IMG/VR virus record: IMGVR_UViG_3300040781_000188
Span: 1 to 61,481 of that record
Direction: 5' to 3' (one strand)
DNA: 61,481 nt
From: a virus
Lineage: Duplodnaviria > Caudoviricetes
Position 1 is the first letter of the stretch. Each line of letters opens with the position of its first letter. Under the pieces are notes generated by a model that saw nothing but the letters and a program-made list of their open reading frames with translations, did not search any database and had not been told where the DNA came from. Positions 7,175 to 55,270 of this stretch are shown in pieces. Made by a program: the position numbers and the translations under genes.

Positions 7175-7564
7175 ATGCCAAAGAAAAGAATATATTATAA
7201 AGGTAAAAAAGTATCTAAAGGTGAAAAGAAAATAATTGATCATTTACTTAAAAGAGAAATTTCTTTTGAACAAGAGAAGACGTTTGATGATTGTAAAACT
7301 AGGAACAATAGAAAACATCTTCGGTTTGATTTCTTTTTGCCGACATTTAAAGTTCTTATTGAATTTGATGGCGAACATCATTATGGTCCTGTTAATAAAC
7401 ATGCTCGTGCTAAATACGTCCATGAACGTACAGTAATAAATGATCAAATAAAAAATAATTATGTAACAACGACAGGATACGGTTTATTACGGATACCGTA
7501 TTGGGAATATGATAAAATAGAAGAGATAATAGACGAGATGATATCAAATCTAGGAAATAAATAA
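7175..7564 (+). CDS. PD-(D/E)xK (Vsr/DUF559-like) endonuclease
   Basis: SKGEKKI, LRFDFFLP, LIEFDGEHH, LLRIPYW. Confidence 0.8.
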   Translation: MPKKRIYYKGKKVSKGEKKIIDHLLKREISFEQEKTFDDCKTRNNRKHLRFDFFLPTFKVLIEFDGEHHYGPVNKHARAKYVHERTVINDQIKNNYVTTTGYGLLRIPYWEYDKIEEIIDEMISNLGNK

Positions 7565-8625
7565 TGAACCCATCAAATATGGCAAGAAAAATTTTAATAT
7601 TAGATGATGAACAATCTATTGTTGATATTATATCTAAATATTTAATTAGGGTTGGTTATCAACCAATAGGGTTTATTAATGTTGAAAAAGCGTTAGAAAA
7701 ATTCGAACGAACAGAAGATATTTTTCTAGTGTTAACAGATATAGACATGCCAGATATTGACGGTATAACTGTACTTAAATCAATAAAATCGATAAGAATG
7801 GATGTGCAAGTAATTATTGTTTCTGGTGCAGGATCGTCGAATCAAATTGTTGAAGCTTTAAGATACGGGGCTTGTGATTATTTAATGAAGCCAGTTAATT
7901 TTGAATTACTTAATCATTCTATATCTAAATGCTTTGAACGATTTGATTATATTAAACATCGAGATGAATATGAAAAAAATCTCGAGGAACAAGTTAAAAG
8001 ACAAACAGAAAGTATATATTCCTTATTTAATGAATCAATTAAATCGTTGTCTAAAATAACAGCGTTACGAGATCCTTATACTGCTGGTCATCAAAAACGA
8101 GTAACCGATTTAGCTTTAGCTATTAGTCAGGAAATGAATTTAAGTGAAGATATCTGTCAAAGTATTAAAATAGCCGGTTTACTCCATGATGTTGGTAAGA
8201 TTTGTGTTCCAACAGAAATCCTTGTTAAACCTGCAAGATTGACAAAAAAAGAAATAGGATTAATGCAAGAGCATGTCACTGCTAGTTATAATATTGTAAA
8301 GAATATTCCTTTTCAAGATGTATTAAATCATGATGTTGCCGAAATAATACTACAACATCATGAACGTCTTGATGGATCAGGTTATCCTAGAAATCTTAAA
8401 GAAAATGAAATATATTTAGAAACAAAAATACTTTCTGTTTGTGATGTTATAGAATCTATGTCATTACATCGTCCTTATCGTCCCGCCTTAGGATTAAAAA
8501 AGACATTGGATGAAATAAGGAGAGGTTGTGGAACAGTTTATGATAATGATGTTTGTCAGACTGCTATAGCAATATTGGAACCTTATGGAGATAGTTTAAT
8601 GAACTATTTTAAGGGTGAATCATGA
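7564..8625 (+). CDS. Response regulator with HD-GYP cyclic-dinucleotide phosphodiesterase domain (RpfG-like)
   Basis: REC (ILDDE, LTDIDMP, KP) plus RDPYTAGHQKRV, LLHDVGK, HHERLDGSGYP, HRPYR. Confidence 0.95.
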   Translation: MNPSNMARKILILDDEQSIVDIISKYLIRVGYQPIGFINVEKALEKFERTEDIFLVLTDIDMPDIDGITVLKSIKSIRMDVQVIIVSGAGSSNQIVEALRYGACDYLMKPVNFELLNHSISKCFERFDYIKHRDEYEKNLEEQVKRQTESIYSLFNESIKSLSKITALRDPYTAGHQKRVTDLALAISQEMNLSEDICQSIKIAGLLHDVGKICVPTEILVKPARLTKKEIGLMQEHVTASYNIVKNIPFQDVLNHDVAEIILQHHERLDGSGYPRNLKENEIYLETKILSVCDVIESMSLHRPYRPALGLKKTLDEIRRGCGTVYDNDVCQTAIAILEPYGDSLMNYFKGES

Positions 8626-19726: not shown

Positions 19727-19759
19727 TCGAACTTCTCCTTTCTTAGGTGGTACATAATT

Positions 19760-20113: not shown

Positions 20114-20114
20114 T

Positions 20115-20143
20115 ATTTCTTTATAACATTTATAAATATTAAA
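20115..20143 (-). promoter_or_regulatory. Conserved promoter-like motif, copy 1
   Basis: Plus strand ATTTCTTTATA-N9-AATATTAAA, same as 51714 and 52701. Confidence 0.6.
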
Positions 20144-20163
20144 AAACCAAAGGAGTAGACCGA

Positions 20164-21171: not shown

Positions 21172-21182
21172 GGAGAACAATT

Positions 21183-21761
21183 ATGGATTTCGCAAAAGGT
21201 CGTTGTATCGTGATGAAAAAAGAATATGATAATTGCTTAGTAATTCCCAAAGGTACATTTTCTTCTTCACGAGATGCGTTTATTTCTGAAGAAGGAATAC
21301 TTAAAATTAAAGAATTATCGACTGCTGAAGATGCCAAAGTTAAAGAGAATGCTGTTTGTTGTATGAATCGTCAAGTATATGATAAATGTTTAGTTGTCCC
21401 AACGGGAGTATTGCATCCTAAAGTCTCTATGACTATTTCTTTTGAAGCTATCGATGGTATATTAGGTGCTATTAAAAATAGGCCTGTTGAAGATAAAAAA
21501 GAAAAGGCTCCAAAGAAACCAACTAAGAAAGAATTGGCTGCGGAAAAAGCCGCAGTGGAAAAAGAATCAGCCTTATCTGCTCTTATAGTTGAAAGAGATG
21601 TTATGGAAGAGAATATTATGTTTATTGAAGATTCATTAAAAGAAGCATCTCCAGAAGAAGCTCCGAAACTTCAAGAAGAATTAACTAATACCCAGGATGC
21701 GCTAAAAGAGAAATTACAACAGATTGATGAGTTTAAACAAATTGATCCTTCCAAAGGATAA
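21183..21761 (+). CDS. Hypothetical protein with internal repeat and coiled-coil C-terminus
   Basis: YDNCLVIPKG / YDKCLVVPTG repeat. Confidence 0.7.
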   Translation: MDFAKGRCIVMKKEYDNCLVIPKGTFSSSRDAFISEEGILKIKELSTAEDAKVKENAVCCMNRQVYDKCLVVPTGVLHPKVSMTISFEAIDGILGAIKNRPVEDKKEKAPKKPTKKELAAEKAAVEKESALSALIVERDVMEENIMFIEDSLKEASPEEAPKLQEELTNTQDALKEKLQQIDEFKQIDPSKG

Positions 21762-21766
21762 TTTAT

Positions 21767-21958
21767 ATGTTATCTATTGTTAGATATTTAAATGAAACTT
21801 GGAGCGCAACTCCGATTCAACCGCCTGTTGGATCAGTATCTAGTGGATATCAAAATATCATTGATCGAAATCTAAAAACAGGAAATGGGCAATTTTTATT
21901 ACTAAGGAAAAACAAAGATGATAAGTCTATTAGAATATCCTATGCCCCAAAGAAGTAA
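21767..21958 (+). CDS. Small tagged protein (MLSIVRYLNE)
   Basis: SD AAGGA; tag motif. Confidence 0.65.
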   Translation: MLSIVRYLNETWSATPIQPPVGSVSSGYQNIIDRNLKTGNGQFLLLRKNKDDKSIRISYAPKK

Positions 21959-22250
21959 TTCTGTGGCTCCTATTGGACCGATGACTAATACTTTGCGCCC
22001 AAGATCCCCTATGAATTCACGATTTGTTAGAATGGGAACACCTGTACGGAGAGCAAGTTTAAGTACAAGTGTTCCCTCTGTACCAAGTAAGAATAATTTA
22101 GGTTTGGGGAATATTGATCGTATGAGGAGAAATGTTAGTGTCTCTCCCACTACAGGTACAAAGATGTCATCAACAGGATTAAAATTAGCTGGGAAAAATG
22201 TGCCACCGGGAACAGCTATAATGAATGTCCCAGTTAGGAGATTACGATGA
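21918..22250 (+). CDS. Tagged low-complexity basic protein (MISLLE)
   Basis: SD AAGGA; Pro/Ser/Arg-rich. Confidence 0.65.
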   Translation: MISLLEYPMPQRSNSVAPIGPMTNTLRPRSPMNSRFVRMGTPVRRASLSTSVPSVPSKNNLGLGNIDRMRRNVSVSPTTGTKMSSTGLKLAGKNVPPGTAIMNVPVRRLR

Positions 22251-22729
22251 ATTCAACCCTTTTAAAGGTTGCTGTTAGTAATGAATTAATGTTAGAAAAT
22301 CAAATACCAAGAGATCCTTCATTAAGTAGGATAGTAAAAGATCCATCTGTTGTTAAATTTATCACTTTAAGTAAAAAACTTTTAAATAAAGAATTAACGC
22401 CACAAGAAAAGAAAGAATATCCCAATCTATTAAAAGATCCTAAAGTACAGGCATATATTCAAGCATCAAAGAAAGTAGGTCAAAGAATAGGTTGGATTAA
22501 AGGTGGAATTTCAGGAACAGTTATTGGAGGATTAGCTAGTACAGGACCATCTGCTGCATTAGGTGCCACCGGTATTGGTCTTGCTGCTCTTGCACTTTTA
22601 GGTGCTATCGCTGGTGGATTATCTGTAGGTTATTTGGCTTCTAAGATTTATGGCATATTAAGAAAATGGAAAACTGAAGAAGAACTTACTAAGGGCGGAT
22701 TAGATAGTGGCGCATTAGTAAGATTGTAA
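22247..22729 (+). CDS. Glycine-zipper membrane-like protein
   Basis: Long Gly/Ala hydrophobic stretch. Confidence 0.7.
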   Translation: MNSTLLKVAVSNELMLENQIPRDPSLSRIVKDPSVVKFITLSKKLLNKELTPQEKKEYPNLLKDPKVQAYIQASKKVGQRIGWIKGGISGTVIGGLASTGPSAALGATGIGLAALALLGAIAGGLSVGYLASKIYGILRKWKTEEELTKGGLDSGALVRL

Positions 22730-22806
22730 AGGGAGGCGAACATGATATATTTAAATCTGTTTAGGATATCTTTACGATTTAAACTCCCTCTGTGTAAAGG
22801 AATATT

Positions 22807-23082
22807 GTGACACAAGAAGAAATATTAAGTAAAAATCGATCTATAATAGGTAATATTGAAGTTGAAGTCGAAATTCGTGTTGGTTCGACTAAGATGTTAA
22901 TTGAGGATATATTAAAATTAGGACCTCAAGCAATTATTAAATTAAATAAATCAAAATATGATCCATTAGATGTATTCGTTAATGGAGTATTATTTGCAAG
23001 AGGGACAGTCGTGAAGATCTCTGGGAGGGATACCTATGGGATCAAAATTACTGAATTCATATCCCCAGACCAACGGATGTAA
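22807..23082 (+). CDS. fliN: Flagellar motor switch FliN-like (SpoA domain) protein
   Basis: IEVEVEIRVG.TKM.I.DILKL...IIKLNK...PLDVFVNG.LFARG.VV...YGIKITE is the SpoA/FliN signature. Confidence 0.85.
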   Translation: MTQEEILSKNRSIIGNIEVEVEIRVGSTKMLIEDILKLGPQAIIKLNKSKYDPLDVFVNGVLFARGTVVKISGRDTYGIKITEFISPDQRM

Positions 23083-23098
23083 AGTAAGGATATCTGAC

Positions 23099-23443
23099 AT
23101 GTACAAAAACCGCCGAGATAATAATCGTATTGAAGTAGGGATAGATGTAACATATATTCTAGCCGATGGATCTGAAGTTAGAGTGTGTCGGACTGTTGAT
23201 GTAAGTCCAGGAGGAATGGCTATTTATGCAGATCAAATATTCCATGCGAAGACACCTTTAAAGTTTTATTTTAATACTAAACCTAAAGAAGTGTTTGATT
23301 GTGAAGTTGTATGGTGTCATAAAATCCCAGTTGTTGCAGGAGACATTCCTAAACCTTGTGAGTATAAAGTTGGACTTAAATATGGTGACGCTATTCTTGA
23401 AAGAGTAAGCGAAATCTTAAATGAAATAGAGGCAAGGAAATAA
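23099..23443 (+). CDS. PilZ domain protein 6
   Basis: RDNNR plus DVSPGG, EVVWC, KVGLKY; ATG 23099 after AAGGA. Confidence 0.85.
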   Translation: MYKNRRDNNRIEVGIDVTYILADGSEVRVCRTVDVSPGGMAIYADQIFHAKTPLKFYFNTKPKEVFDCEVVWCHKIPVVAGDIPKPCEYKVGLKYGDAILERVSEILNEIEARK

Positions 23444-23445
23444 CA

Positions 23446-24513
23446 ATGCCGTTAGGATTCGAATCAAATTCGTTGATTGAACATGAATTTATTGGAACTG
23501 TTTTACCAGATTTAGATCCTTTACAAAAAGGCAGATATAGAGTACATATCCCAGAATTGATGCAACATATATCAGAACAAAATGGTATATGGTGTAAGAA
23601 TCATGTGCATGCGTGGAGAATAACTCCTTCCGCTGATGGTGAGTATGGGAGTTATTTTCCACTTCATGCGGATACTAAAGTCATTATTAAATTTTATAGT
23701 AACGATATAAACACTGGGTATATTTGTCGAATAATATCTGATGCCTTAGATCAGACAGATAAAGAAGGACAAGATGCAGTAACCGTTAAACCATCATTGA
23801 AAGATAGAGATGAACAATATATAATCTTTAAAACGCCGAAAAAATTCAATGTATTTTATGCAAATGAAGAAACTGAAAACGAACCGAACACAATTTACTT
23901 AGTATATAATCGAGACGGTAATCCGGAGAGGAGAACGGTTTATCGTATTGATGAATCGGGTATCCATCTTTGGACTCGTGATAATAGAAGGGTCAGAATA
24001 TTATTAGATGAAAATAGACAAATTGATGGAAACCAAACCGAATATATTAAACTTTCTAGAAAGCGAAATATTGGAGAGCATGATAGTCTAGCAGTACGTG
24101 GAAATAAGATAACTAATGTGATAGAAAATGAAGACCGTACTGTTTATAAGACTAGAACAACTAATATACACGAGAATGAAGATAAGACTATTAAGAAAGA
24201 CCAAATTGAAAATGTAGAAGGTAATAAAGATAATCTCATCAAAGGAAATCTTACAATTCAAGTGCAAGGTGAATGTTCGATATCTGTTGATGGAAAATGT
24301 AATATATGGAGTGGATCGGAAATTAATGCTGTTGCTCCTATGATTAATTTAAATTGTGGTACAGCTTCTAAAGTACCATCCAAGACGTCTAAACCTGCAG
24401 AACCTGCGTTACCAAAAACAACAGTGCGTGATCTTGGACCTGGGGAAACTGAGGAATATGATCTTGAAGATTCTGTTGGTGATAAATGTGATGACGCAAC
24501 TAAGAGGGTTTAA
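23446..24513 (+). CDS. Baseplate hub/central spike (T4 gp5/VgrG-like)
   Basis: DLDPLQKGRYRVHIP OB-fold start; 8-residue VxGNxxxx beta-helix repeats; INLN end. Confidence 0.8.
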   Translation: MPLGFESNSLIEHEFIGTVLPDLDPLQKGRYRVHIPELMQHISEQNGIWCKNHVHAWRITPSADGEYGSYFPLHADTKVIIKFYSNDINTGYICRIISDALDQTDKEGQDAVTVKPSLKDRDEQYIIFKTPKKFNVFYANEETENEPNTIYLVYNRDGNPERRTVYRIDESGIHLWTRDNRRVRILLDENRQIDGNQTEYIKLSRKRNIGEHDSLAVRGNKITNVIENEDRTVYKTRTTNIHENEDKTIKKDQIENVEGNKDNLIKGNLTIQVQGECSISVDGKCNIWSGSEINAVAPMINLNCGTASKVPSKTSKPAEPALPKTTVRDLGPGETEEYDLEDSVGDKCDDATKRV

Positions 24514-24515
24514 TA

Positions 24516-25559
24516 ATGGATATAAGTTTAACAGAAGGTATTAAGTTTGGTAAAGAAGATCTTTGTAAGGATACTGGAGATCAGATTACGGATCTACAAA
24601 GAGGATTTGAAACAACAATCTCGATGGGCAGAGGATTTGGAACTAAAGGGCTCACTGAAGGAATATCTGGTATAATTGATGCTGGTGGAGAATCTGCTTT
24701 AGGAGATTTAGATCTAGGAATTGCCGGACTTAAAGATAAATCTAATGGAATGTTTAGTTCTATTGATACTTTTAAAAATGATATAGCTAGTGGGAGTATT
24801 GTTGATGGATTAAATGTTAATGTAGGTTCTATTGTTGATTGTTTAACAGGTTTCGATTTATCAAAATTCGGAATAGGTGATGATGGTGACACTTCTAAAG
24901 TAAATATAAGTAGCACTAATAAGATTTTAGAAGAAACTATGTCTACTATGTCTACTTCTATAATGAATGAATTAAGTCAATTGATGGGGCCTGCCGAAAA
25001 AGCTCTTATGGACGGTGTAGATAAATTAAGAAACTTACTTGATATAGATGCTTTAGATAAGTTGTTCCAATTAACTGGATGTTTACAGAATTGTCCTGGA
25101 GCAGAAAGTTATCAAGGAACAGACACTTCTATTAATTCATATACTGTTTATTGTTTAACAGAACAAAAAGAATTTATAGTTTATTCTTCAACACCACCAG
25201 TCGGACCGTATGTTTGTCCAACAGATTCAAATCATGTGTGTGATGAAGAATTAACAAAAATAAAACAAAAAAATATTCCTTCTCATTTAGGAATAGAATC
25301 TAAATTATCTGCTATAGGACTAACTATAAATGGTGAAGTGGATTGGGAATCTCCGGCTCTAGAAGGTTTAGAAATTCCTACTAAATTAATAGATAATGTG
25401 AATATAGTGACGGAATTTAAAAAAGATATTGAAAATAAAGTGTCATTAGCGAAAAAATTTTCACCTTTGCCGGAATTACCTACTTTACCTAAATTACCAA
25501 CATTGAATAACCCAATTAAAGATTTGGATATGTCTGGAAAGATTGCAGCATTATTTTAA
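24516..25559 (+). CDS. Hypothetical virion protein with Cys/His module
   Basis: Follows the spike gene; YTVYCLTEQ...CPTDSNHVCD. Confidence 0.65.
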   Translation: MDISLTEGIKFGKEDLCKDTGDQITDLQRGFETTISMGRGFGTKGLTEGISGIIDAGGESALGDLDLGIAGLKDKSNGMFSSIDTFKNDIASGSIVDGLNVNVGSIVDCLTGFDLSKFGIGDDGDTSKVNISSTNKILEETMSTMSTSIMNELSQLMGPAEKALMDGVDKLRNLLDIDALDKLFQLTGCLQNCPGAESYQGTDTSINSYTVYCLTEQKEFIVYSSTPPVGPYVCPTDSNHVCDEELTKIKQKNIPSHLGIESKLSAIGLTINGEVDWESPALEGLEIPTKLIDNVNIVTEFKKDIENKVSLAKKFSPLPELPTLPKLPTLNNPIKDLDMSGKIAALF

Positions 25560-25577
25560 ATAATTAAAGAGGCAATC

Positions 25578-25949
25578 ATGTCTAATAAATTAAAAACATT
25601 TGTTATTGATGATGATGATTCTGTTATGCGTGTTTTTGTGTTGTTATTAGAAAAACTAGGTTGCGAGTCTAATATGGCATTATCTACTAAACATGCGATT
25701 AAATTAAATAACAAAGAATTATTAGATTCTGATCTTGTATTTTTAGATATAGGAATACCAGGTGAATCTTTTAAATCTAATCTTGATGATTTATTTAGTT
25801 TAAAAAAAGATATGAAAATAATTGTAATGTCTGGTGCAATTTATGATGACGAACGAACTCTAATGAAAGATCGAGGAGTTTATAAAATTATAAGTAAGCC
25901 TGTGTCCTTAGAAGAGTTAAAAGAAATTATAGGTCTCATAGGAGAATAA
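25578..25949 (+). CDS. Single-domain response regulator (REC)
   Basis: VIDDD, VFLDIGIPG, VMSG, SKP. Confidence 0.9.
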   Translation: MSNKLKTFVIDDDDSVMRVFVLLLEKLGCESNMALSTKHAIKLNNKELLDSDLVFLDIGIPGESFKSNLDDLFSLKKDMKIIVMSGAIYDDERTLMKDRGVYKIISKPVSLEELKEIIGLIGE

Positions 25950-25954
25950 TCGTT

Positions 25955-28900
25955 GTGCAAAAAAATGTTTGTAGGATATTATTGGTTATATTATTATTAA
26001 TAATACCAACACTTTCTAATGCTAATTTTAAACTTAGAGTTGGCGTTTACGAAAATTATCCAGTTATTTTTATGGATGGTGATACACCGAAAGGTTTATT
26101 CATTGATATATTAGAGCATGTTGCTAAGGGTGAAGGTTGGACTCTTGAATATGTTAAATGTGATAGCTGGATAGAGTGTTTCCAAAAAGTAAGATTTGGT
26201 GGTATTGATATTCATGTAGGTGTCGCGTATTCAATTGAAAGAGACGATTATTTAGATTATAATAAAGAATCAATTCTTACATATTGGACAACAATATATC
26301 AGAGACCTTTAGGTGGAATCAACAATATTTTAGATTTGGATGGTAAAACTGTCGCTGTTATGGAAGGTGATTATAATGCTGAAGAATTTATAAATTTAAC
26401 TGAAGAATTCGACATTAATTGTGAGTATGTATGGGTAAAACAACCAATAGAAGTTTTTGATAAATTAGTGAATAATGAAGTTTCTGCGGCTATTATAAAT
26501 AGTATTAGTGGTATGGTTAATAGTGTCGATTATGATGTAAGACAGACATCTATTGTATTTAATCCTTTTGGATCTTTTTTTGTAACACGAGAAGGTAAAT
26601 TCCCTTTAGTGTTACAAGCTATTGATGATCATATTAAAATTGAAAAGAAAGATAAATTGTCATATTATCATTCTCGATTAAATTATTGGATTTCCAAAAT
26701 TAATCCAAGTTATAAAATTGACTTGATATTTATTTATTTATTTTGTGGAGCATTAGGTTTAGTTTTTATATTTTTATATTTTAAAGAAAAGGAAACTAAA
26801 GCTCCAATTAGAATAAGTTTAGTATATTTAATTATAGGAACTATTTGGATTGTTGTTAGTGATAATCTTATGTTTGGGATCACTGATCCAGAAAATTACA
26901 GGCAGTTTCAAACGTTAAAAGGTATATTGTATGTTATATTAACTACATGTCTAATATTTGTTCTTATTAGACATAGTATTCAAAGAATAAGAGATAATGA
27001 AACGAGATATAGTAAAGTAATACAGACTGTTCCACATGGAATGTTAGAACTAGATAAATATGGTGTGATTAAGTTAGCGAACACTACATTTTTTGAAATG
27101 ATTGGATATGGTAATGGTGAATTAATAGGTCAGAAAGTTCAAAGTTTTGTTGATTCTAAATCTATTAAAGATATTAATGAAATGCTTGGTAGTATACGTC
27201 AAGGTTATCCTAATAAAAACACTAATTGGTTTGGTAAAGCGGTAACTAAACGTGGAAGGACTATTGATATTGAGGTAAATTGGAGTTATTTGTATGGAGA
27301 TGATCATATATCTGGTATAGTTGCTGTTGTTACCGACAACACAGAAAAGAATAAAATTCAGATTAGATCTCAAGTAGCTAATGAGATATTAAATTTACTT
27401 AACAGAACTATCGAAATAGATGAAACTATACAGCAGTGTTTAGATTTATTAAAAGATAAACTTTTTATATCTGCTGTCGCTGTGAGATTGACTAAAGATG
27501 GAGATTACCCGTATTTTAAATCTCAGGGGTTCGATGAAGTTTTCACAGAAAAAGAAAAGTGCCTTTTAGCAGTGAAAGAAGTAATTTGTGTTGATCCACA
27601 TGATGAAGACTGTGAACATGTTTTAGATTGTCTTTGTGGTTGTGTTATTGAATACGATGAAGAAATATCTCCTACTCATTTCACAGAAAAGGGATCTTTT
27701 TGGTCGAATAATCTTTGTCAATTCTTCCAGAATTTGTCTATTGAAGATAAAGAACGATATCATATAAGAGGTTCTTGCGAAGTTGCAGGTTTTAAATCTA
27801 TTTGTCTTATTCCTCTTCGTTTTGGGAATAGAACAATTGGTTTGTTACAATTAAATGACAGACGCGTAGGTGTATTTACTAAAGATGTTATTAATTTCTT
27901 TGAAGGAATTGCTGATAGTTTAGGTATAGCTTTATATCGAAAAGTAACAGAATTAGAATTAACGAAAAGTGAACGTACTCTAAATGCTATATTTAATGCG
28001 GCTCCTATTGGTATGGGTATAATTAATAACAGGATTTTTGGAGTAACAAATAAGCATCTTCATAAAATGATAGGTCGTGGGCCAGAAGAACTTTTTGGTA
28101 AAAGTGCAAGAATACTTTATCCTACTCAAGAAGAATATGAAAGAGTTGGTCGAGAAAAACATCCTCAAGTCGAAAAATATGGTATAGGATGGGTCGAAAC
28201 CAAATTCAAACATAAAGACGGTACAATTAAGGATATTATTCTTAGTTCTTCAAGTATTGGTGAAGATGGTGAAATGGTTTTTACTAGTGTTGATATAACA
28301 GAACGTAAAAATGCTGAAGAAAAGATTATAAGAAGTGAAGTGAAGTATAGAGGATTATTTGAAAACATGTTAGATGGTTTCGCTTTACATGAAATAATAG
28401 TTAATGGTCACGGGGTACCTATTGATTATAGATATTTAACTGTTAATCCTGCATTTGAAAGAATAACAGGGTTTAAAAAAGATTATGTTGAAGGAAAAAC
28501 TGTTAAAACTGTGTTACCTAAAATAGAGGATCATTGGATTCAAAGATTTGGTAATGTTGCTTTAACAGGGGAATCTGATAATTTCGAAGAAGAAGTTATG
28601 AGTATGGATAATAGAGTTTTTGAGGTAACAGCATATAGCCCTAAAACAAATCAATTTGCGGTTTTATTTCAAGACATAACTGATCGTAAAAGGGCAGAAA
28701 ACGATCTAAAAGAGAAAAATGATCAATTTGATAAGTTAATATCAGGGTTATTTGATGGGTTTGTTAGAGTGTCATTAGACAGAATTGTTATTTCTGCTAA
28801 TCGTGCTTTTTGTGAAATGATTGGTTACACTGAAGATGAATTAAAAGCTATTACATTTGAGAATTTTACACATCCTGATGATTGGGTGTGGGAGAAACCT

Positions 28901-30283
28901 ATTGTTGAAAAATTAGTAAATGGCGAGCAAATACCCCCTTATGAAAAAAGATATATCCATAAAGATGGGAGTGTTATAGATATTGAACTTGCTCCTTATC
29001 CTATTTCTGATGATTCTGGTAATGTTGTTGAATTATGGGGTATTGCAAAGAATTTAACGCCAGTTAGAAATGTTCAATTAGAAATAATAGAAAAAGAAAA
29101 ACAATTACGTCGGGCTTCTAAAATGGAAGCTGTTGGTACTTTAGCTGGTGGATTAGCTCATGACTTTAATAATATTATTCAAATAGTAAGTGGTAATGTT
29201 CAATTAATGCGTATGGATTTGGATTCTGACGGAAAAACTTCTGATTGGAGTAAAATGTTAAATGATATGTTAGAAGCTTCTGAGAGAGGAGCTGCTATTG
29301 CAAAACGTCTTTTAACTTTTAGTCGTCAAGTCGAAAGCCATCTTGTACCAATTGATATCAATGATGAAATTATTATTGCTCATAAATTATTAGACAGAAC
29401 TGCAACGTGGCCGGTTTTAGTTAATATTAAATTAGATCTTGATGAAGATATTTGTTTAATTTTAGCGGACTCTACACAGATTAATCAGATCGTTACAAAT
29501 CTATGTATTAATGCTAAAGATGCAATGCCTTCTGGTGGATCAATAACAATTAAAACTAGAGTTGCAGAATTAGATGAATTATATTGTCGTTCTCAACCTG
29601 AAGCTGTCCCGGGAAGATACGTTTGTATGGTAGTTGCTGATGATGGTATAGGTATGAAAGCTTCTATTCTTGAAAGAATATTTGAACCATTTTTCACAAC
29701 TAAAAGTACAGGAAAAGGAACAGGATTAGGTTTAGCTGTTGTTTATGGTATTGTTAAAAATCATAATGGTTTTATAACTGTATATAGCGAAGAAAATATC
29801 GGAACGGAGTTCAAAGTGTATGTGCCATGTACAGATCAAACTCTTAGAGAAAATAATAGTTCTTCTGTTTGTGATTTATCTCAAGGTAATAAAGAATTAA
29901 TACTTATTGTAGATGATGAGTCTAGTATACGGTTTATTCTTAAAGATATATTAAGAAGGTATAATTTTAAAGTTCTCGAAGCTAATAATGGAACTACTTG
30001 TTTAGATTTATATAGTAAATATATGGATAAAATAGAACTTGTTATTTTAGATCTAGTTATGCCTGGAATAAGCGGAACAGAAACATTAAAAGAAATTTTA
30101 AAGATTAATCCTGATGCTAAAGTTATTATTTCTAGTGGGTATTCGTCTAATGGTCCAGTTAAAGATTCAATTGAAAATGGAGCATATTCTTTTATAAATA
30201 AACCATATACATTAAATAATCTTATTAGTGTCATTAAGAGAGTTCTTAGTGGCAAAAGAGATGGAGTAGATGAGATATGTTAA
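25955..30283 (+). CDS. Membrane hybrid histidine kinase (periplasmic solute-binding domain, TM helices, PAS, GAF, 3 PAS, HisKA, HATPase, REC)
   Basis: [60 protein letters not shown]. Confidence 0.95.
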
Positions 30284-30519
30284 GCATTCACCATTTATTG
30301 GAAAGTAACATACTTCAGATTGGGCCGAATGCAGAAAGCGATGTTGAAGAACTTTCTCCAGAAGGCGATAAATTAGATAAACAAATTATTAAAAATGCGT
30401 TTACTGGTGGGGATCGTACTCATGGAGAAGTCGATCCAAAAGCATCGCCTCCGAATCCTGATGCAGCATATAAATATGTAAATACACCACTTGAAAGAAT
30501 TACTAAGACACGAATATAA
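30277..30519 (+). CDS. Small tagged protein (MLSIHHLLE)
   Basis: Overlaps the kinase stop; tag motif. Confidence 0.7.
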   Translation: MLSIHHLLESNILQIGPNAESDVEELSPEGDKLDKQIIKNAFTGGDRTHGEVDPKASPPNPDAAYKYVNTPLERITKTRI

Positions 30520-30649
30520 TTCTTGGGTGGCTAACAATCACTGGTTCTAATGTTTAATATATTAGGTAATGATATTATTATTATTAAAAATTATTTCTCC
30601 TAATTGCTTTGTTTATTTGTTAGTCACCCAATTTATTTTGGAGAGAATT

Positions 30650-31111
30650 ATGATAAGTTTATTTGACCAAGGATTCTTAAACAGAAACTGGGGCAAATTA
30701 GCTCTTGGTGGTGGAGCTCTTGCTGTAGGCTCGATGGTTGGTGATGACCCAGAGAATTTTAAAAGTGTTACAAAAAAAGCAATGACCTCTACTAAAAACA
30801 CGATACAAGACACCCCTAAATCGATTCCTAGAGTAATAAAAAATAACTCTAATTATAATGATTTTGGTAAAGCAACAACCGCTTGGAAAGAAAAAGGTGG
30901 TAAAGCTGTTATGCAAGTGAGGCAGAGACTTTCCAATATAGATCCGGATGCCGCCGTTCAAAAGGGAGCTAGAAAAATAGGACAAATAGCAAGAACAACT
31001 AAAGACTATACAGATCGAACTGCAGGTAGTTTTAGAAGTGGTTATTCTGCTAATATTCCTAAATTGCCTAGCGAAAAATACGATGCTCGAGGAAGGATTA
31101 CTGGCTTATAA
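30650..31111 (+). CDS. Tagged basic protein (MISLFDQ) with Gly-rich helix
   Basis: SD GGAG before ATG 30650. Confidence 0.7.
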   Translation: MISLFDQGFLNRNWGKLALGGGALAVGSMVGDDPENFKSVTKKAMTSTKNTIQDTPKSIPRVIKNNSNYNDFGKATTAWKEKGGKAVMQVRQRLSNIDPDAAVQKGARKIGQIARTTKDYTDRTAGSFRSGYSANIPKLPSEKYDARGRITGL

Positions 31112-31191
31112 TTAGGGTGAATTTAACTCTATTATAAGACTGGAAGGTTTCTTGAGTGTGAACTCTACCTTCCTTTATATTCCCTTGTAAC

Positions 31192-31222
31192 GGCGGGGGA
31201 GAAATAATCTCCCTCGCCTTCT
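31192..31222 (+). terminator. GC-rich hairpin, probable terminator
   Basis: GGCGGGGGAGA / TCTCCCTCGCC; weak U-tract. Confidence 0.55.
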
Positions 31223-31237
31223 CATTAGGAAGATAAT

Positions 31238-31870
31238 ATGTATGTAAAATTAAAAAACACATATAAAATACTACATGAAGCAGATTCAGATATCCGATTA
31301 GATATTACTAAAGATGCTGCTAGTATTTCTAATAAATTTAAAATAAAGCCTCAAGGGTTTATTTTACAAGATACATACAATAATCCTTTCCTCCCTGTTA
31401 GACCAAGACCTAGAGTCGATACATCTAAAATGGATCTTGTTGAAGTCTTTAAAAGAGTTCGTGAATTGTATGGAAGATTTTCGATGAGCTTTCTTCCATG
31501 GCATTATGTTTGTGAACTTGTTGGTGATAGGTATTATGTTTTTAATACTAGACCAATAGACTTACAATTTCCAATGACGACTAATGATGTTTTGAGGTTT
31601 AAGGAAAGAAAGAAAACTTGGGATAATGTGACTAATATTTTTATGAATGATAGAGTTTTTGATATTAGTGAAGCTATTCATATATGCATTATCGGAGATA
31701 CTAATTTAGATGTTTATCCAAAAAAGATTTATGAACAAATAGGCAGAACGTGCATGGTCCCTTTTGTTAGGTATTTTAAATTACCAGAAGGGTTATTTCA
31801 GCGCACGTTTCCATTTAATATTGGCAAACGATTTAATATGAACTTATTGACTAAATTTGTGAGACGGTAA
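31238..31870 (+). CDS. Hypothetical protein, possibly a degenerate amidase_2 fold
   Basis: LPWHYV and AIHICIIGD resemble N-acetylmuramoyl-L-alanine amidase motifs. Confidence 0.45.
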   Translation: MYVKLKNTYKILHEADSDIRLDITKDAASISNKFKIKPQGFILQDTYNNPFLPVRPRPRVDTSKMDLVEVFKRVRELYGRFSMSFLPWHYVCELVGDRYYVFNTRPIDLQFPMTTNDVLRFKERKKTWDNVTNIFMNDRVFDISEAIHICIIGDTNLDVYPKKIYEQIGRTCMVPFVRYFKLPEGLFQRTFPFNIGKRFNMNLLTKFVRR

Positions 31871-32103
31871 TGAAAGACTTATTTCTTTTATCATTGCTAT
31901 TTATTTCATTTCTTTTTTCGTCTTGTACTTATTGTAAATCACGAAAATATATTTCGTATCAAGATAAATTAAAAATTGACAAACAAATTCAATTAATAAA
32001 AGAATTAGCAACCGATTGTAGATATGGAGATTTTATAAAATGTTACCAAATTAACCCGGAAATTGAGAATTTAGAATCGATGTTAGAATCCAATGATTTA
32101 TAA
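31870..32103 (+). CDS. Small putative lipoprotein
   Basis: Hydrophobic leader ending FSSC. Confidence 0.55.
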   Translation: MKDLFLLSLLFISFLFSSCTYCKSRKYISYQDKLKIDKQIQLIKELATDCRYGDFIKCYQINPEIENLESMLESNDL

Positions 32104-32172
32104 CAAATTCTAAGTTTGTATAGAAATTTTATAAGTGGTGTCAATTACTTATAATTTCCGAGGAGAAATGAA

Positions 32173-33459
32173 GTGACAACTGTTTGTGCAGAAGTGAGAC
32201 CTGAGTCCCAATCTTTATGTGAAAACAGTTTAAGGACAGATTCAGTGCAAGATAATTCATACATCATACTTAAAAATTATTTAGGTGGGGAATTAAAAAA
32301 TTTCAGTAAAGAGAACTCAAGACCTGTTATAGGTTGTTTGAGATCAAGGACATTAAAGAAGTATGTTGAGAAACTTAGGAGTGTGCATTGTCAGTCTTTA
32401 GTAAATAGATCTGCGGTTGTCGAAGATTTATTTATTTTACAACAAACCGTCTTGTGTCTTTATAGGTATAATACTGAATTTTTAAATCTCTCTTATCCCG
32501 AATATCGCTCTAAAGTTTTATATCCTAATGTGATATATATTTTGCTACGATTATTGACAAATGGGCATAAATTTTTACAAACCGCGATTAGGAGTGTGTA
32601 TAACGAAATATGTAGAAAGTCCTACAGTGTCGTTTATTCACACATTAATACATTTTATCTAGATCATGATGTTATTAAAACAGATGTATTGTATGAATTT
32701 CTTGGTAATGGATTAAAGAAATTTAACCCACTAGATGTTGATGATATAACTGTGTTTTATAAGTGTGTATTTAGAAATATTTTTCAATATTATTTTAGAA
32801 AAGAGAAGAGAATAAATACTGTGTATGATTCTGTTTGGGAAATAGAACAATCTGTCGATAGTATAGTTTCTATTCCGGTCAGATTAGGATTATATCGTGA
32901 TGTATTATATGATTTACAAACTCTAAAATTTTATGAAAAATCGCCGACTATGTTACAATTAAGTTATAACTATAAAGTGTTTAAGAATGTTATAACTTCT
33001 AACGAATTTCAAGGTGTTTATTTTGGTTGCGAAAGAGATAGTTCTATCATTAATAATGATGAATATAAATTAATGAAGTTTTATGATGATGATATTGAAA
33101 GTAATGGAGTATTAGAGAAAATAAAAAAGTTACCAACAATCTATAAATTATTAAAGTGTGTTCATATAATTAATCCGAACAGTAGACCATATAATGAAAT
33201 GTTAATAAAACCAAAGGTCGTACAAACTGCGGTTTTAGAAGAACTAGCATATCCTTTCAGAAATATGTTCAATGAAGACTATATCTATGGTATACTTGAT
33301 AAAATTGCAGAAAATTTTACAAAGACAATACTCTCTGGTGAATATGTAAATTTGTTTACTCTTTCAAATGTTAAAATAGATCAAATAACCTTTACACAAC
33401 AATTGAAAAAATTTATAGGTATATGTTTAACAGAATCAGGGAGAAGGAATGACGAATGA
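32173..33459 (+). CDS. Hypothetical protein
   Basis: 428-aa ORF, SD GAGGAG, GTG start. Confidence 0.7.
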   Translation: MTTVCAEVRPESQSLCENSLRTDSVQDNSYIILKNYLGGELKNFSKENSRPVIGCLRSRTLKKYVEKLRSVHCQSLVNRSAVVEDLFILQQTVLCLYRYNTEFLNLSYPEYRSKVLYPNVIYILLRLLTNGHKFLQTAIRSVYNEICRKSYSVVYSHINTFYLDHDVIKTDVLYEFLGNGLKKFNPLDVDDITVFYKCVFRNIFQYYFRKEKRINTVYDSVWEIEQSVDSIVSIPVRLGLYRDVLYDLQTLKFYEKSPTMLQLSYNYKVFKNVITSNEFQGVYFGCERDSSIINNDEYKLMKFYDDDIESNGVLEKIKKLPTIYKLLKCVHIINPNSRPYNEMLIKPKVVQTAVLEELAYPFRNMFNEDYIYGILDKIAENFTKTILSGEYVNLFTLSNVKIDQITFTQQLKKFIGICLTESGRRNDE

Positions 33460-33988
33460 TGAATTAAAAAATGCAGATGCTTCGACATCAGATACTTATG
33501 ATTATATTGGTGATGATTTTTCTAAACAAAAGAGTGAATTAGAAAAACAAATTATTGTCATGACGACAAGACAATCTGAAATTCAAAATCATATTCTTGC
33601 AATAGAACAAAATATTTCGTTTCTTAATAGCTATATAGCTAAGAATAAAGAGGATCAAGAGAAACAAAGAGTTGGGCGAGGAGCAATATCAAAGAATATT
33701 GAATTACTTGCAAAATTATATCAAGTGTACAGAGAATTCGAAGATACAAAGGTTCGTTATTATAAGAATATTTCTGATGACACATATAGATTTCATCATT
33801 TAATCTCTGTTGATATTAGGAGAATAGATGAAAAATTTTCAGCTGTTGAAGGTGGAGATTTCTTTGGTGTTATAAAAGAAATGATGAATTTAATTCAACA
33901 TGTTCAAAATGAACATGGTGGAAAGATTCCCTTGACAGAGGATCTTCAAGGAGATTTAGTAAAAACAAATCCGGAGTATGACTTATGA
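33449..33988 (+). CDS. Coiled-coil hypothetical protein
   Basis: 179-aa ORF coupled to neighbours. Confidence 0.7.
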   Translation: MTNDELKNADASTSDTYDYIGDDFSKQKSELEKQIIVMTTRQSEIQNHILAIEQNISFLNSYIAKNKEDQEKQRVGRGAISKNIELLAKLYQVYREFEDTKVRYYKNISDDTYRFHHLISVDIRRIDEKFSAVEGGDFFGVIKEMMNLIQHVQNEHGGKIPLTEDLQGDLVKTNPEYDL

Positions 33989-34230
33989 TTTCTATTCGAT
34001 ATTTATTTGAAACGTCAAAATATAAGCCTTGGATGGTAGGCACACCTGTACAAATAGGTGGTCCTGGGTATCCAACTGGGGATTTAAGACTAACTAAGGC
34101 GCCACCGGGTCAAATGTTGGCTTTACAAAAAAATGCAGAGCAGTTAACTAATGTTCAAAATGCTGAAATGAAAAAAGAATTAAGAAGGAAAAGGAATCTT
34201 ACTCCAGCAGAACTTGCTAGCGGAGCATAG
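33985..34230 (+). CDS. Small tagged protein (MISIRYLFE)
   Basis: ATGA overlap; tag motif. Confidence 0.7.
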   Translation: MISIRYLFETSKYKPWMVGTPVQIGGPGYPTGDLRLTKAPPGQMLALQKNAEQLTNVQNAEMKKELRRKRNLTPAELASGA

Positions 34231-34239
34231 GAGATTATA

Positions 34240-34473
34240 ATGTTATCTCTGTCTAAATATTACAACAAAATAGAAGAACGGGATATGGTTGTGATAAGAA
34301 GAATTGAACGAAAAGAATCTTATCCTCCAAAACCCGATGATGGTGAAGATGAAGTAGAAACTGTTTCAACTCCAGAAGAGGATGTTTCTGTTGTAAAAGG
34401 TAAAGAAATAAATAAAACAACTGGTGAAGAGATAGAAAAAGAACCTGTCGTAATAAGGCGAATGAAGAAATAA
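34240..34473 (+). CDS. Small tagged protein (MLSLSKYYNKIEE)
   Basis: SD GGAG; VVIRR at both ends. Confidence 0.7.
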   Translation: MLSLSKYYNKIEERDMVVIRRIERKESYPPKPDDGEDEVETVSTPEEDVSVVKGKEINKTTGEEIEKEPVVIRRMKK

Positions 34474-34494
34474 CAGTTTTGGAGGCGAACTATA

Positions 34495-35948
34495 ATGGCA
34501 AGAAAGAATCAAACTGTAAATACACAAGACTTATCGACCCTAGAATTAGCAGATCAAAACCTTACAGATAAACTAGGGGAAGCATTTGATAAAATTATTG
34601 AAAGAGATTTTGGACATTTGATGGCTCCAGAACCTATTGTAACACCATTCGGAGTGCAACATTTAGATGCACTCTTAGGTGGCGGTATAGTATCATCTGA
34701 CCCTATTCTCTTCAGCAGTACACCAGAAACAGGTAAGTCCACTTTAGCTTTTCAATTTAGTAAAGCTTTTCAAATGTTATATCCTAACTCGGTTGTTGTG
34801 TATTTAGATATTGAAGGATCTGGAAATAAGAAAGAAAGTGAATTCAGACAATCTAGACAAGAAATCTTTGATTAGACTTAAATCGTTTTAAGCATGAACC
34901 TATCGTAGTAACTGTTGATGGTGTTTTTGAATTAATGGAACGTTTGATTCAAATTAAACAACAGTTTGAAGAAAAACTAAACAAACAGTTTTATATTGCT
35001 TTTATTTGGGATAGTATTGCGTCGACTCCTATCCCTAAAACTTTAGAAGCTGAAAATCCAAATTCTATTATTGGAGCTAAGGCTAGACAAGTTAGTTTTC
35101 TTTTGGACAAATATACTCCTCTAATTAAATTTAACAAGGTTACTTTAATTTGTATAGATCAGATTAGAGCTAATATTAAAATTGATGGCCCATATGTTCA
35201 ACAAGAGAAATCTGTTGGTACATTTAAAGATTATAAATCCGCAACTAATATTTATGCATTACAACATAGAACTCAGCAGTGGATTTTTCTAAGTAAAAAG
35301 AAAGTTTTGCCACCATCTGAAGGACTAGGTATTGATGGATGGTATATGGATATTTATACTGAGAAGAATAAACTTGCTCCGAGTCAACATGCTGTTACTT
35401 GTGTATTTGATAAAAAGACAGGCATTCATAAGTTTTGGTCTGAGTTTACATTTCTTATGGAACCTACTCCGAGTGAGAAAAAGATTTATAAGAGCTCTCC
35501 TCCTGCTTCATTATTTATGATGAAGAAAGTATCTCCAAGGGTTAAACTTGTCGTAACAGATGAACATGGAACTAAAATGTGGGAGAGTGAACCGTTCTAC
35601 AGAAAAAACGCAAATGAAAAATATGAATCAGATCCTGAATTTGCAAAATGGTTTGATTATGCTGTTCAAGTGAGTGTGTATAATAGAATTACTCAAGGTA
35701 TATTCAAATGTGATCAAGGTCAATATGATGCCGTTTCTGATGAATGTACTATTGACCCAACAGTCCATAATGTCTTAGTAGATACTTTGGGTGATGAAGA
35801 TACTGTCGGTGCAGCTCCGGAAATACAGAATGAAACGCAAGAGCCTCAGGAAGAAGTAGAACAAGTTGGTGAGGAATTTTTCCTCGGACAACCAGCTGTT
35901 GAAGCAAAATCTGGGTATAAATCTGTATTTGAATCAGATACGCCGTAA
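34495..35948 (+). pseudogene. uvsX: RecA/UvsX-like recombinase interrupted by a 1-nt frameshift near 34870 (real or sequence error)
   Basis: LDALLGGG, PETGKST, YLDIE in the first ORF; IWDSIA, IDQIR, EKNK in the second; adding one G gives IFGLDLNRF. Confidence 0.8.
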
Positions 35949-35955
35949 CCAAATT

Positions 35956-36022
35956 GAGTCGGGAAGGATTGATAGTCGTGTGTCTGACAACTCCTTCATT
36001 CTATTCTTTCCGACTCTTTTTT
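35956..36022 (+). terminator. Long-loop intrinsic terminator
   Basis: GAGTCGGGAAGGA / TTCTTTCCGACTC followed by T6. Confidence 0.7.
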
Positions 36023-36036
36023 AATGGGAGACCACA

Positions 36037-36924: not shown

Positions 36925-36937
36925 GAGATTTTGACAA

Positions 36938-54511: not shown

Positions 54512-55270
54512 ATGAGTAATAATTTGGTTATTGATCCTATAATTCATAATTTACCAGTTGCTATATTAGTTGTTGATAAAGAGCGAAAAGTAATGTTGTC
54601 TAATAAAGCTGCTGAGTTCCTTGCAAATAAATCAGAGTCACAATTATTTGATTTATATGGCGGACAAGCTTTAGGCTGTATTCATGCAGATTCTGAAGAA
54701 GGTTGTGGATTTACAGAACATTGTGATGCTTGTGATGTTAAAAATGCAGTTTTAGAAACATTCTTATCAAAGAAAGATAGAGAGTCGTTTGATACAAAAA
54801 TTAATTTAAAATTATACGGGTCTAGAGATATAAAAGTATCTGCAACATATTTAAATTTAGATGAAATTAGAGATGAAATTGTTAGTGTTGAAAGAAGAAT
54901 AAGTCGTGGTAGAAGAGAGAGTGATTTGCGTAAAGAAATGGTTATAGTTGCTATGGAAGATGTGACTGAGTTTAAAAAGAAAGAACGAATGTCTGCAACA
55001 TTAGAAACTGTTGGTGCATTATGTCATGAAATGAATCAACCATTGCAAGTTCTAGAAGGATCTCTTTCTCTTATTAAACTTGATTTGGATAGTCCGAAAG
55101 ATAAAAATAAAGAAATAAATGAAAATCTTAAAATTGCATATGAAGCACAAGTTAAATTAGCTAAAATTATATCGGATCTTAAACAATTAAAAGAATACGA
55201 AACGAAACAATATTTATCTGGTCGAATATTAGATATTGAAAAATCTGCAAATAGTGGTGAATTGTCATGA
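54512..55270 (+). CDS. PAS plus HisKA-only (no ATPase domain) signalling protein
   Basis: PAS start LPVAILVVD...SNKAA, Cys cluster GCIH...GCG.TEHC..C, H-box ALCHEMNQPL; no HATPase motifs. Confidence 0.8.
   Translation: MSNNLVIDPIIHNLPVAILVVDKERKVMLSNKAAEFLANKSESQLFDLYGGQALGCIHADSEEGCGFTEHCDACDVKNAVLETFLSKKDRESFDTKINLKLYGSRDIKVSATYLNLDEIRDEIVSVERRISRGRRESDLRKEMVIVAMEDVTEFKKKERMSATLETVGALCHEMNQPLQVLEGSLSLIKLDLDSPKDKNKEINENLKIAYEAQVKLAKIISDLKQLKEYETKQYLSGRILDIEKSANSGELS

Follow-up and report, generated by a model that had tools for sequence, protein, structure and literature searches.

A membrane hybrid sensor kinase of a jumbo phage lineage as the probable input of a virus-encoded phosphorelay

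Introduction

In Xanthomonas, the hybrid sensor kinase RpfC controls RpfG, a cyclic di-GMP (c-di-GMP) phosphodiesterase in which a receiver (REC) is joined to an HD-GYP domain, while kinases of the BvgS/EvgS type bear periplasmic Venus-flytrap (SBP_bac_3) domains. In Pseudomonas aeruginosa, the PilZ adaptor of the SagS-HapZ-HptB system acts by binding a hybrid kinase at its receiver. To our knowledge, the sensory systems described for phages are small cytoplasmic receptors, such as those of quorum sensing or the arbitrium system. Here, we describe a membrane hybrid sensor histidine kinase and a stand-alone receiver (Rec-only protein) encoded at positions 25578-30283 of the IMG/VR virus record IMGVR_UViG_3300040781_000188 (Duplodnaviria; Caudoviricetes), which was analysed over its whole stretch of 61,481 nucleotides (nt), referred to below as the window. 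This gene pair is most likely a conserved and selected part of a jumbo phage lineage and the input of a virus-encoded phosphorelay controlling cyclic-dinucleotide signalling, so that the virus probably reads its surroundings through a signalling relay of its own.

An S-G-Y motif is found in intermediary receivers of the CckA class and in Rec-only relay proteins, according to Bruderlin et al. (2023; PMC9981736). In the sections of Iyer et al. (2021; PMC7824862) considered, the HD-GYP proteins of jumbo phages are treated as stand-alone counter-defence enzymes with no classical two-component kinase, and histidine-kinase signalling is cited only as a context from which a divergent receiver domain is always absent. 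The six signalling terms looked for in the main text of Al-Shayeb et al. (2020; PMC7162821) do not appear there; its supplements and those of PMC7824862 may list such genes. Full-text searches of the literature uncovered no account of a hybrid kinase or phosphorelay encoded by a phage. The kinase matches phrog_5982 (1.7e-132), which is unannotated; phage collections thus already contain genes of this kind that have gone undiscussed.

A kinase and receiver carried by a phage

The pair consists of the following genes.

25578..25949, + strand: Rec-only receiver of 123 amino acids (aa), ATG start; Pfam Response_reg 1.7e-12; residues D11-D14, D57, S85 and K107
25955..30283, + strand: hybrid sensor histidine kinase of 1442 aa, GTG start; Pfam domains and PHROG phrog_5982 (1.7e-132)

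Both open reading frames (ORFs) run exactly as the initial annotation had placed them. The Rec-only ATG (25578) is preceded at 5 nt by AAAGAGG, whereas the kinase GTG falls 5 nt past the Rec-only stop codon and 10 nt after an AGGAG (25940-25944) that sits inside the end of the receiver gene, so that the pair looks translationally coupled. The kinase is unbroken, as had been claimed, and so are two further full-length copies; the three near-identical full-length copies, on different contigs, show 0, 3 and 4 internal residue differences.

Virion and packaging genes flank the locus on one contig, and the pair closes a gene string of the order PilZ, hub, ORF, REC, kinase. The related contigs named in this list are described below.

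3454-4077: endolysin
23036..23443, + strand: PilZ protein at the head of the string; Pfam PilZ 1.1e-9; RxxxR and DxSxxG motifs
23446..24513, + strand: gp5/VgrG-like baseplate hub, 2 nt after the PilZ gene; Gp5_trimer_C 3.4e-9, Phage_base_V; phrog_430
24516..25559, + strand: ORF between hub and REC, conserved in position only (23-27% identity)
30277..30519, + strand: 80-aa ORF overlapping the kinase stop codon; 46-52% identity in G704, L189 and L249, there also behind the kinase
31192..31218, + strand: terminator-like hairpin of 11 pairs, 8 of them G-C, the first downstream of the string; weak
44787-45596: tail-tube-like protein
55236-57411, + strand: large terminase (TerL), intron-split

The hub gene ends ~1 kb upstream of the Rec-only gene, and the ORF between them (24516-25559) had no Pfam or PHROG match. 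The hairpin scan was weak (2 in the region versus 2.9 expected), and a sigma-70 promoter scan of the region was uninformative (52 sites versus 53.5 expected).

The window is the whole record of this genome and is 22% complete by IMG/VR and CheckV. Another IMG/VR contig, G704 (109,194 bp; CheckV 41%), holds the best matches of 62 window ORFs in collinear order, with a hub, an ORF, a 122-aa receiver and a 1692-aa hybrid kinase following each other. Lengths of 61.5 kb at 22% and 109 kb at 41% give a genome of ~270 kb; a 306,383-bp contig bears a member of G704's kinase cluster, and the carrier is probably a jumbo phage of about 270-300 kb. For a phage of this size, the short lytic cycle that had made multi-input sensing seem unexpected in the initial annotation is not a given, and the long or carrier-state infection at which that annotation hinted is conjectural; no lysogeny gene was seen in the window, which covers 22% of the genome.

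A metagenome scan with the GAF motif of the kinase, from which 80 loci were fetched, revealed the window's non-signalling phage genes on five of them (L186, L189, L224, L249 and L256) and on none of the other 75. In five of the six relatives (G704 and four of these loci), the hub, the ORF, a REC of 122-128 aa and a kinase of 1450-1702 aa stand in this order, the Rec-only orthologue lying immediately 5' of the kinase in all five; the contig of L189 begins 47 bp before the kinase. The complete string, with the PilZ gene at its head, is shared by the window, G704, L186, L224 and L249, and the hub is 61-76% identical in related contigs. The best match of the kinase among 5.8 billion proteins is P0002, which has 48% identity and the same architecture. 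Because P0002 sits on L186, a 98-kb contig of this phage type, the nearest relative of the kinase belongs to another phage, and the near-identical host gene on which the initial annotation would have given up its claim was not found.

In Logan assembly X2, from another sample, 0.93 of the sampled words of 23000-32000 are present; the word shares in an RNA run (X10, 0.05) and a sediment run (X9, 0.11) are too small to count as evidence. The G+C content shows no step (0.28-0.32 across the kinase versus 0.30-0.35 beside it). Judged from sequence and gene context, the kinase and receiver are phage genes and not the product of misassembly, and the claim of phage carriage stands, given the hub, endolysin, tail-tube-like and TerL genes of the window and its collinearity with G704.

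A partial protein, P0003, encoded on a 3.8-kb contig labelled 'MAG: Melioribacteraceae bacterium' (MAG, metagenome-assembled genome), is closely related to the L186 kinase and is most likely a phage fragment binned into a bacterial MAG. The label is at most a weak hint at the host, because genomes sampled from the phylum and the class of an 'Ignavibacteriae' MAG gave only partial matches of 27-38% identity.

Domain architecture and catalytic residues

Pfam was run on the whole kinase and on nine pieces of it, and returned the kinds of domain claimed earlier, those of a multi-domain, multi-input sensor.

26033..26689, + strand: SBP_bac_3-like (Venus-flytrap type) periplasmic domain, residues ~27-245, between the first transmembrane (TM) segment (TM1, 5-23) and TM2
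26723..26968, + strand: three TM segments (257-275, 283-305, 320-338), Kyte-Doolittle
27005..27337, + strand: PAS 1, residues 351-461; PF00989, 3.3e-10
27365..27949, + strand: GAF with C559, C561, C608 and a variable insert; Pfam GAF 3.2e-7, residues 594-660
27983..29059, + strand: PAS 2 (weak), PAS 3 and PAS 4; Pfam 19.9, 28.9/27.0 and 49.1 bits
29135..29830, + strand: transmitter, with HisKA (DHp, H1069) and HATPase_c (N, G1, F and G2 boxes); Pfam
29900..30235, + strand: C-terminal receiver with an S-G-Y (FATGUY-like) motif and D1366; Pfam Response_reg 8.2e-24, residues 1316-1427

The four hydrophobic segments of the Kyte-Doolittle scan (5-23, 257-275, 283-305 and 320-338) would place the SBP-like domain on the outer side of the membrane and the rest, from the first PAS to the REC, in the cytoplasm. 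The outer domain matches SBP_bac_3 over residues 27-104 (30.1 bits versus a cut-off of 26.4; 4.5e-7), with only the first lobe aligned, and its best match among PDB sequences is 3h7m, a periplasmic 'Sensor protein' (7.8e-6), followed by glutamine-binding proteins. The signal or TM segment, the amino-acid-binding-type periplasmic domain and the TM helices that had been read from the sequence are therefore upheld. The count of four PAS domains held for three of them, which exceed the threshold and include PAS_4/PAS_8 at 797-913 and PAS_3/PAS_9 at 924-1035, but PAS 2 (677-783) reaches 19.9 bits, under the Pfam cut-off of 22.6.

The transmitter comprises HisKA (1061-1124; 29.4 bits on the piece) and HATPase_c (1172-1292; 3.3e-23). 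All the boxes reported as intact were found: the H box AHDFNN (H1069), the N box at 1182-1191 (N1186), G1 as DDGIGM (1229-1234), F as FEPFF (1243-1247) and G2 as GTGLGL (1255-1260), together with the receiver residues D1320/D1321, D1366, S1394 and K1416. Fourteen catalytic or acceptor residues and the three GAF cysteines are identical in 7/7 phage orthologues. The S-G-Y-S of the kinase REC is likewise invariant in 7/7, the F position of FxSGY being occupied by I or V. By its H box, its N, G1, F and G2 boxes and its fused receiver, the protein would be classed as a class I hybrid histidine kinase. No histidine phosphotransferase (Hpt) domain was found in the kinase by Pfam, and six-frame searches of the window and of G704, at E-values up to 1, were equally negative. 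In the Rec-only protein, the acceptor pocket is unchanged in 6/6 orthologues, and four of the six have the S-G-Y motif.

Residues 470-672 were modelled as a GAF domain with AlphaFold2 (pLDDT 90.3, pTM 0.89; alignment of 69 homologues). The Foldseek matches of the model are generic GAF structures, including free methionine-sulfoxide reductases (fRMsr), and the sequence of the piece gave only weak generic GAF matches in the PDB. The initial annotation had described this GAF as carrying a Cys-rich insert, the string [19 protein letters not shown] at residues 545-563. The domain is present, but the string is only in part an insert: its first part (545-558) is variable, and the stretch 540-559 is of low confidence in the model, whereas C559 and C561 (C-x-C-G), along with C608, are unchanged in 69/69 aligned homologues of the GAF subtype. 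That these cysteines have a redox- or metal-linked role is a guess. The third invariant cysteine of the subtype (27620-27780, residues 559-608) lies ~47 residues after C-x-C-G, and the subtype is widespread, its contigs mostly having a G+C content of 45-67% and no phage genes.

Conservation, selection and origin

Between the window and its six phage orthologues, the DHp is 57-68%, the CA 60-64% and the REC 47-54% identical, while the sensor part varies. Four relatives have a periplasmic domain of the ABC_sub_bind family instead of SBP_bac_3 (19-22% identity) and L189 has none. The window and L186 share the outer domain, the membrane part, PAS 1, GAF and PAS 2 (51-66%); PAS 3 and PAS 4, on the other hand, are 45-47% identical with L189 versus 20-25% with L186. 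A conserved transmitter with swapped sensor domains is the pattern of a working kinase that exchanges its inputs. The ratio of non-synonymous to synonymous substitutions (dN/dS), which had been proposed as a check, was estimated in related phages by the method of Nei and Gojobori (NG86); the closest pairs gave 0.24-0.32 for the kinase, 0.19-0.49 for REC and 0.11-0.14 for the hub, which at a dS near saturation points to purifying selection.

The DHp-CA-REC core was placed in a tree of 208 rows, made up of the window, 71 IMG/VR loci, 58 database proteins and 78 others (77 bacterial or archaeal genome loci and L098, a phage-contig locus), the cellular rows being taken from the best 80 of 616 genome-contig stretches, found with generic patterns, and from two 401-genome samples. 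The window falls into a 13-row clade with 100% local support, together with G704 and eleven database proteins, and this clade contains 0/91 of the cellular rows. Core identity among the rows of the tree is 53-58% inside the clade and at most 48% outside it, and the nearest outside rows, among those in the tree, are Thermodesulfobacteriota. Gene context is visible for 5/13 clade rows, all five of which are phage. No full-length cellular relative was found in 401 genomes of the phylum or 401 of the class of the 'Ignavibacteriae' MAG; in each sample, 10/401 genomes had a match, and all of these were partial (27-38% identity). The tree topology makes a phage-specific clade well supported but not proven, and the kinase and Rec-only genes appear to have been inherited vertically within this jumbo phage clade.

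Candidate partners and the proposed relay

Two further signalling proteins and several small PilZ ORFs are encoded elsewhere in the window.

7564..8625, + strand: REC-HD-GYP phosphodiesterase (RpfG-like), the proposed terminal regulator; HD_5 1.2e-36, Response_reg 1.1e-21
54512..55270, + strand: PAS-DHp protein of 252 aa without an ATPase domain, H172, a candidate phosphotransferase; PAS and HisKA matches
4089-4457, 5190-5522, 5526-5876, 6126-6443 (weak) and 10726-11034, all + strand: PilZ ORFs; Pfam
49169-49537: PilZ ORF; Pfam

The proteins at 7564 and 54512, named by the initial annotation as candidate phosphotransfer targets, agree with their earlier description. The REC-HD-GYP protein has intact motifs (HDVGK at 208-212, HHERLDGSGYP at 265-275), and its PDB matches are led by the c-di-GMP enzyme 4mcw (1.3e-26), with the 3'3'-cyclic GMP-AMP (3'3'-cGAMP) phosphodiesterase 5z7c at 4.4e-26. 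Its orthologue in G704 is 47% identical, and homologues at 44-48% are named 'response regulator RpfG family c-di-GMP phosphodiesterase' by the Joint Genome Institute (JGI). Contigs of 114,794 bp and 306,383 bp suggest that it accompanies clade kinases. Its separation of 17 kb from the kinase is repeated in G704. With the Rec-only protein and the kinase REC, it makes up the three receivers of the window, and the same three are present in G704; none of the receivers of either is a DNA-binding response regulator.

The PAS-DHp family comprises nine proteins of 237-258 aa, 9/9 of them without an ATPase (CA) domain and with an invariant H box; their DHp reads H-E-x-N-x-P-L-Q, and four cysteines (C56, C65, C71 and C74) are invariant. 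Similar small PAS-HisKA genes (L149:12830-13483 and L163:15979-16638) lie 2-5 kb from SBP_bac_3 hybrid kinases in unrelated jumbo phage records. The PilZ ORFs number seven in the window, six of them above the Pfam cut-off, and the RxxxR and DxSxxG motifs of PilZ proteins fit c-di-GMP. A model that combined the PilZ protein 23036, the kinase receiver, the Rec-only protein and c-di-GMP scored 0.00 (mark 0.32; no controls), which carries no weight in either direction on binding. A Tad6-like protein (9804-10283, + strand; PF25188, type I Thoeris inhibitor, 2e-17), 70% identical in G704, is encoded amid the PilZ genes and near REC-HD-GYP, possibly marking an anti-defence neighbourhood.

To the reading in which a CckA-like hybrid kinase and its coupled Rec-only protein form a working phage pair and feed a phosphorelay to REC-HD-GYP and the PilZ readers, we assign a probability of roughly 0.5. 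The kinase would enter the host inner membrane after infection and integrate an external solute signal, received by the periplasmic domain, with cytoplasmic signals received by the four PAS domains and the Cys-bearing GAF, perhaps redox or metal. H1069 would autophosphorylate and pass the phosphoryl group to the kinase's own receiver (D1366), from which a histidine phosphotransferase, either the phage PAS-DHp protein (54512-55270) or a host Hpt, would carry it onward to the Rec-only and REC-HD-GYP (7564-8625) proteins. REC-HD-GYP would then set the level of a cyclic dinucleotide, most likely c-di-GMP, which the seven PilZ proteins would read.

Kinases in other phage records

An alignment-based scan of IMG/VR yielded 101 stretches with relatives of the kinase core, and the 80 retained represent 79 distinct loci; among these 79, G704 is the only one with further genes in common with the window. 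Hybrid kinases are present on 6/6 contigs examined in the range of 144-358 kb, five of them amid jumbo phage genes (RNA ligase, NT5C, phage metallopeptidase, NADAR and NAD-salvage genes), while in L163 (144 kb) the kinase stands beside DUF5662, a caspase-domain protein and mostly unmatched ORFs. Among five of these records, the kinase has a receiver in 5/5, and a further receiver frame of stand-alone size occurs in 4/5, HD-GYP in 3/5 (one a REC-HD-GYP fusion) and a large terminase with phrog_2 in 3/5. GGDEF, which bears on the direction of the relay's output, was found in 0/5 phage records searched. The tree disperses these kinases among bacterial ones, which suggests independent captures in unrelated jumbo phages. 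It may be, as a tentative generalization, that jumbo phages have repeatedly built second-messenger circuits of their own, inherited vertically here and captured independently in at least four other lineages, from a sensor-exchanging hybrid kinase, a Rec-only protein, a Cys4 PAS-DHp protein, REC-HD-GYP and a PilZ family; the virus would thereby sense the medium and the redox or energy state of the host and time lysis, dormancy or dispersal of the infected cell.

When 50,697 phage records were searched by tblastn with the kinase, 56 matches were obtained, all of them partial and each spanning less than 80% of the query. The annotated matches examined were rejected as precedents, since they look bacterial (glnL/glnG and arcB contigs labelled Acinetobacter phage), and so was the match in a named 274-kb Microcystis phage (L266; MW495066.1, 225830-234618), where rnhC, coaE, sasA and aspS adjoin and the stretch also looks bacterial. 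Megablast of 20000-40000 against the phage records returned no match, and a single-protein pattern scan of viral contigs gave 18 pattern matches, 0 of which were confirmed.

Competing explanations

Several observations weigh against a working phage relay. In the window's own Rec-only copy, the S-G-Y motif is without its Y. No Hpt that could serve the middle step of the relay was found in the window or G704 (0/2), and the 109 kb of G704 contain no homologue of the PAS-DHp protein (54512). Since the genes lie 17 kb apart, the kinase and REC-HD-GYP are tied by co-occurrence alone, and the cyclic nucleotide is not settled, because HD-GYP enzymes can act on 3'3'-cGAMP (5z7c, 4.4e-26). The window represents 22% of the genome only. 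As to the origin of the kinase, the tree was built by FastTree only, and 8/13 clade rows have no visible context; given also that the cellular rows are the best 80 of 616, the clade may include a cellular member. The dS of 0.7-1.0 even in the closest pairs makes the dN/dS values rough.

A less likely explanation is that the kinase takes over the host by cross-talk, feeding or draining host Hpt proteins and response regulators and so reprogramming transcription, motility or the cell cycle, with the Rec-only protein as a phosphate sink or kinase regulator. The window and G704 have neither Hpt nor a DNA-binding response regulator, as this would lead one to expect; the H box (HDFNN) bears D-x-x-N, a phosphatase-type motif; and many homologues are named CckA-type by JGI, a class that acts via separate transferases. 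However, three receivers and a DHp-only protein come from the phage itself, and the divergence of the kinase core follows the phage clade and no visible host group. We consider a regulated counter-defence somewhat less probable again. With the relay wired as above, HD-GYP would here degrade defence cyclic nucleotides, such as the 3'3'-cGAMP of the cyclic-oligonucleotide-based anti-phage signalling system (CBASS), with PilZ proteins as sponges and the kinase as a gate, in keeping with the 5z7c match, the Tad6-like Thoeris inhibitor (9804-10283) beside the PilZ and HD-GYP genes, and the prediction, in the part of Iyer et al. (2021; PMC7824862) drawn on, that jumbo phage HD-GYP proteins counter nucleotide-based defences. 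A periplasmic solute sensor and five cytoplasmic sensor domains would nevertheless be odd in an instant countermeasure, and both the top PDB match, 4mcw, and the RxxxR and DxSxxG motifs of PilZ, as commonly interpreted, speak for c-di-GMP.

That the gene is a passenger, a host kinase caught by chance and decaying without a role in infection, is very improbable. Host capture does occur, as shown by other jumbo phage kinases scattered among bacterial sequences in the tree, and PHROGs lists the family as of unknown function; this explanation is nevertheless contradicted by a kinase that is intact in 7/7 diverged phages with its catalytic residues kept and a dN/dS of 0.24-0.32, by the retention of its partner REC, and by three near-identical copies without a frameshift. 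Next to no weight is left for a bacterial kinase joined to phage DNA by the assembler or through host contamination, for which the MAG label of P0003, a near relative of the top match, might be cited. The same junctions (hub, ORF, REC, kinase and an ORF of 80-89 aa) recur in independent contigs of separate assemblies at 35-49% kinase identity, and the 98-kb contig of the top match is of the same phage type, while the absence of a G+C step, the share of words in X2 and the lack of any partial match above 38% in the two 401-genome samples also contradict it.

Other features of the window

TerL is split into 55236-55778 and 56110-57411 by a group I intron (Rfam RF00028, 111.8 bits, E 3e-28; 55766-56011, + strand), and is a single 617-aa ORF in G704. 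A UvsX/RecA-like recombinase is likewise distributed over two ORFs, 34495-34875 and 34935-35948 (+ strand), 60 nt apart, and forms a single ORF of 484-522 aa in G704, L186 and L189; Rfam gave no match at the split, which may be due to a frameshift, a stop, a small insertion or a sequencing error. The window starts with a radical SAM protein (164-1081), and an AAA ATPase paired with a DUF2201 metallopeptidase/VWA-like protein on the minus strand (17110-19771) is conserved in G704, L186 and L224.

Implications

In this virus, a membrane sensor kinase of full size, with an extracytoplasmic domain of ligand-binding type, has been retained by selection through deep divergence while its sensor modules were swapped. 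Receivers, a cyclic-dinucleotide phosphodiesterase and PilZ readers are encoded by the same phage. Should the proposed relay operate, infected cells would respond to cues chosen by the virus, and the question of what a phage wants to know about its environment would become testable. The locus is also a warning that MAG-labelled bacterial kinases such as P0003 can be phage genes.

Comparison with known systems

The RpfC/RpfG system resembles the phage set in that a membrane hybrid kinase occurs with a REC-HD-GYP protein whose HD and GYP motifs are intact. RpfC, however, ends in an Hpt domain, which the phage kinase lacks, and the phage genes are 17 kb apart, with a sensor unrelated to the membrane domain of RpfC that senses diffusible signal factor (DSF). 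As in BvgS/EvgS, an SBP_bac_3-like domain precedes the membrane segments, which are followed by PAS, transmitter and receiver, although the phage kinase has a single weak flytrap where those kinases have two, and differs further in its four TM segments, the lack of an Hpt and an additional GAF and PAS array. The SagS-HapZ-HptB system offers a parallel for an Hpt-less hybrid kinase accompanied by single-domain PilZ proteins, one of which heads the gene string. Compared with the jumbo phage HD-GYP proteins in the part of Iyer et al. considered, the enzyme is again an HD-GYP phosphodiesterase encoded by a jumbo phage, but here it is fused to a receiver and found with a kinase, a Rec-only protein and PilZ receptors in the same phage.

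The most extensive likeness is to the CckA-ChpT-CtrA/CpdR system of Caulobacter. The phage kinase shares the H box AHDFNN and the order PAS-HisKA-HATPase_c-REC, many of its homologues are named CckA-type by JGI, and the phage encodes a separate DHp protein that, from its domain content, would lack kinase activity. The kinase REC has S-G-Y, and so do most Rec-only orthologues, as CpdR does (PMC9981736). The phage differs in having no ChpT, since the 54512-55270 protein has PAS and HisKA matches without a degenerate CA part; in having no CtrA-like DNA-binding regulator among the three receivers of the window (78% of the genome being unseen); in the I or V that replaces the F of FxSGY in the phage kinases; and in being carried by a virus, with a periplasmic solute-binding domain and a GAF as input and an HD-GYP phosphodiesterase as the terminal enzyme. 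The closest functional analogy would thus appear to be a CckA-ChpT-CtrA/CpdR relay with an RpfG-like output, in which the PAS-DHp protein is a candidate stand-in for ChpT.

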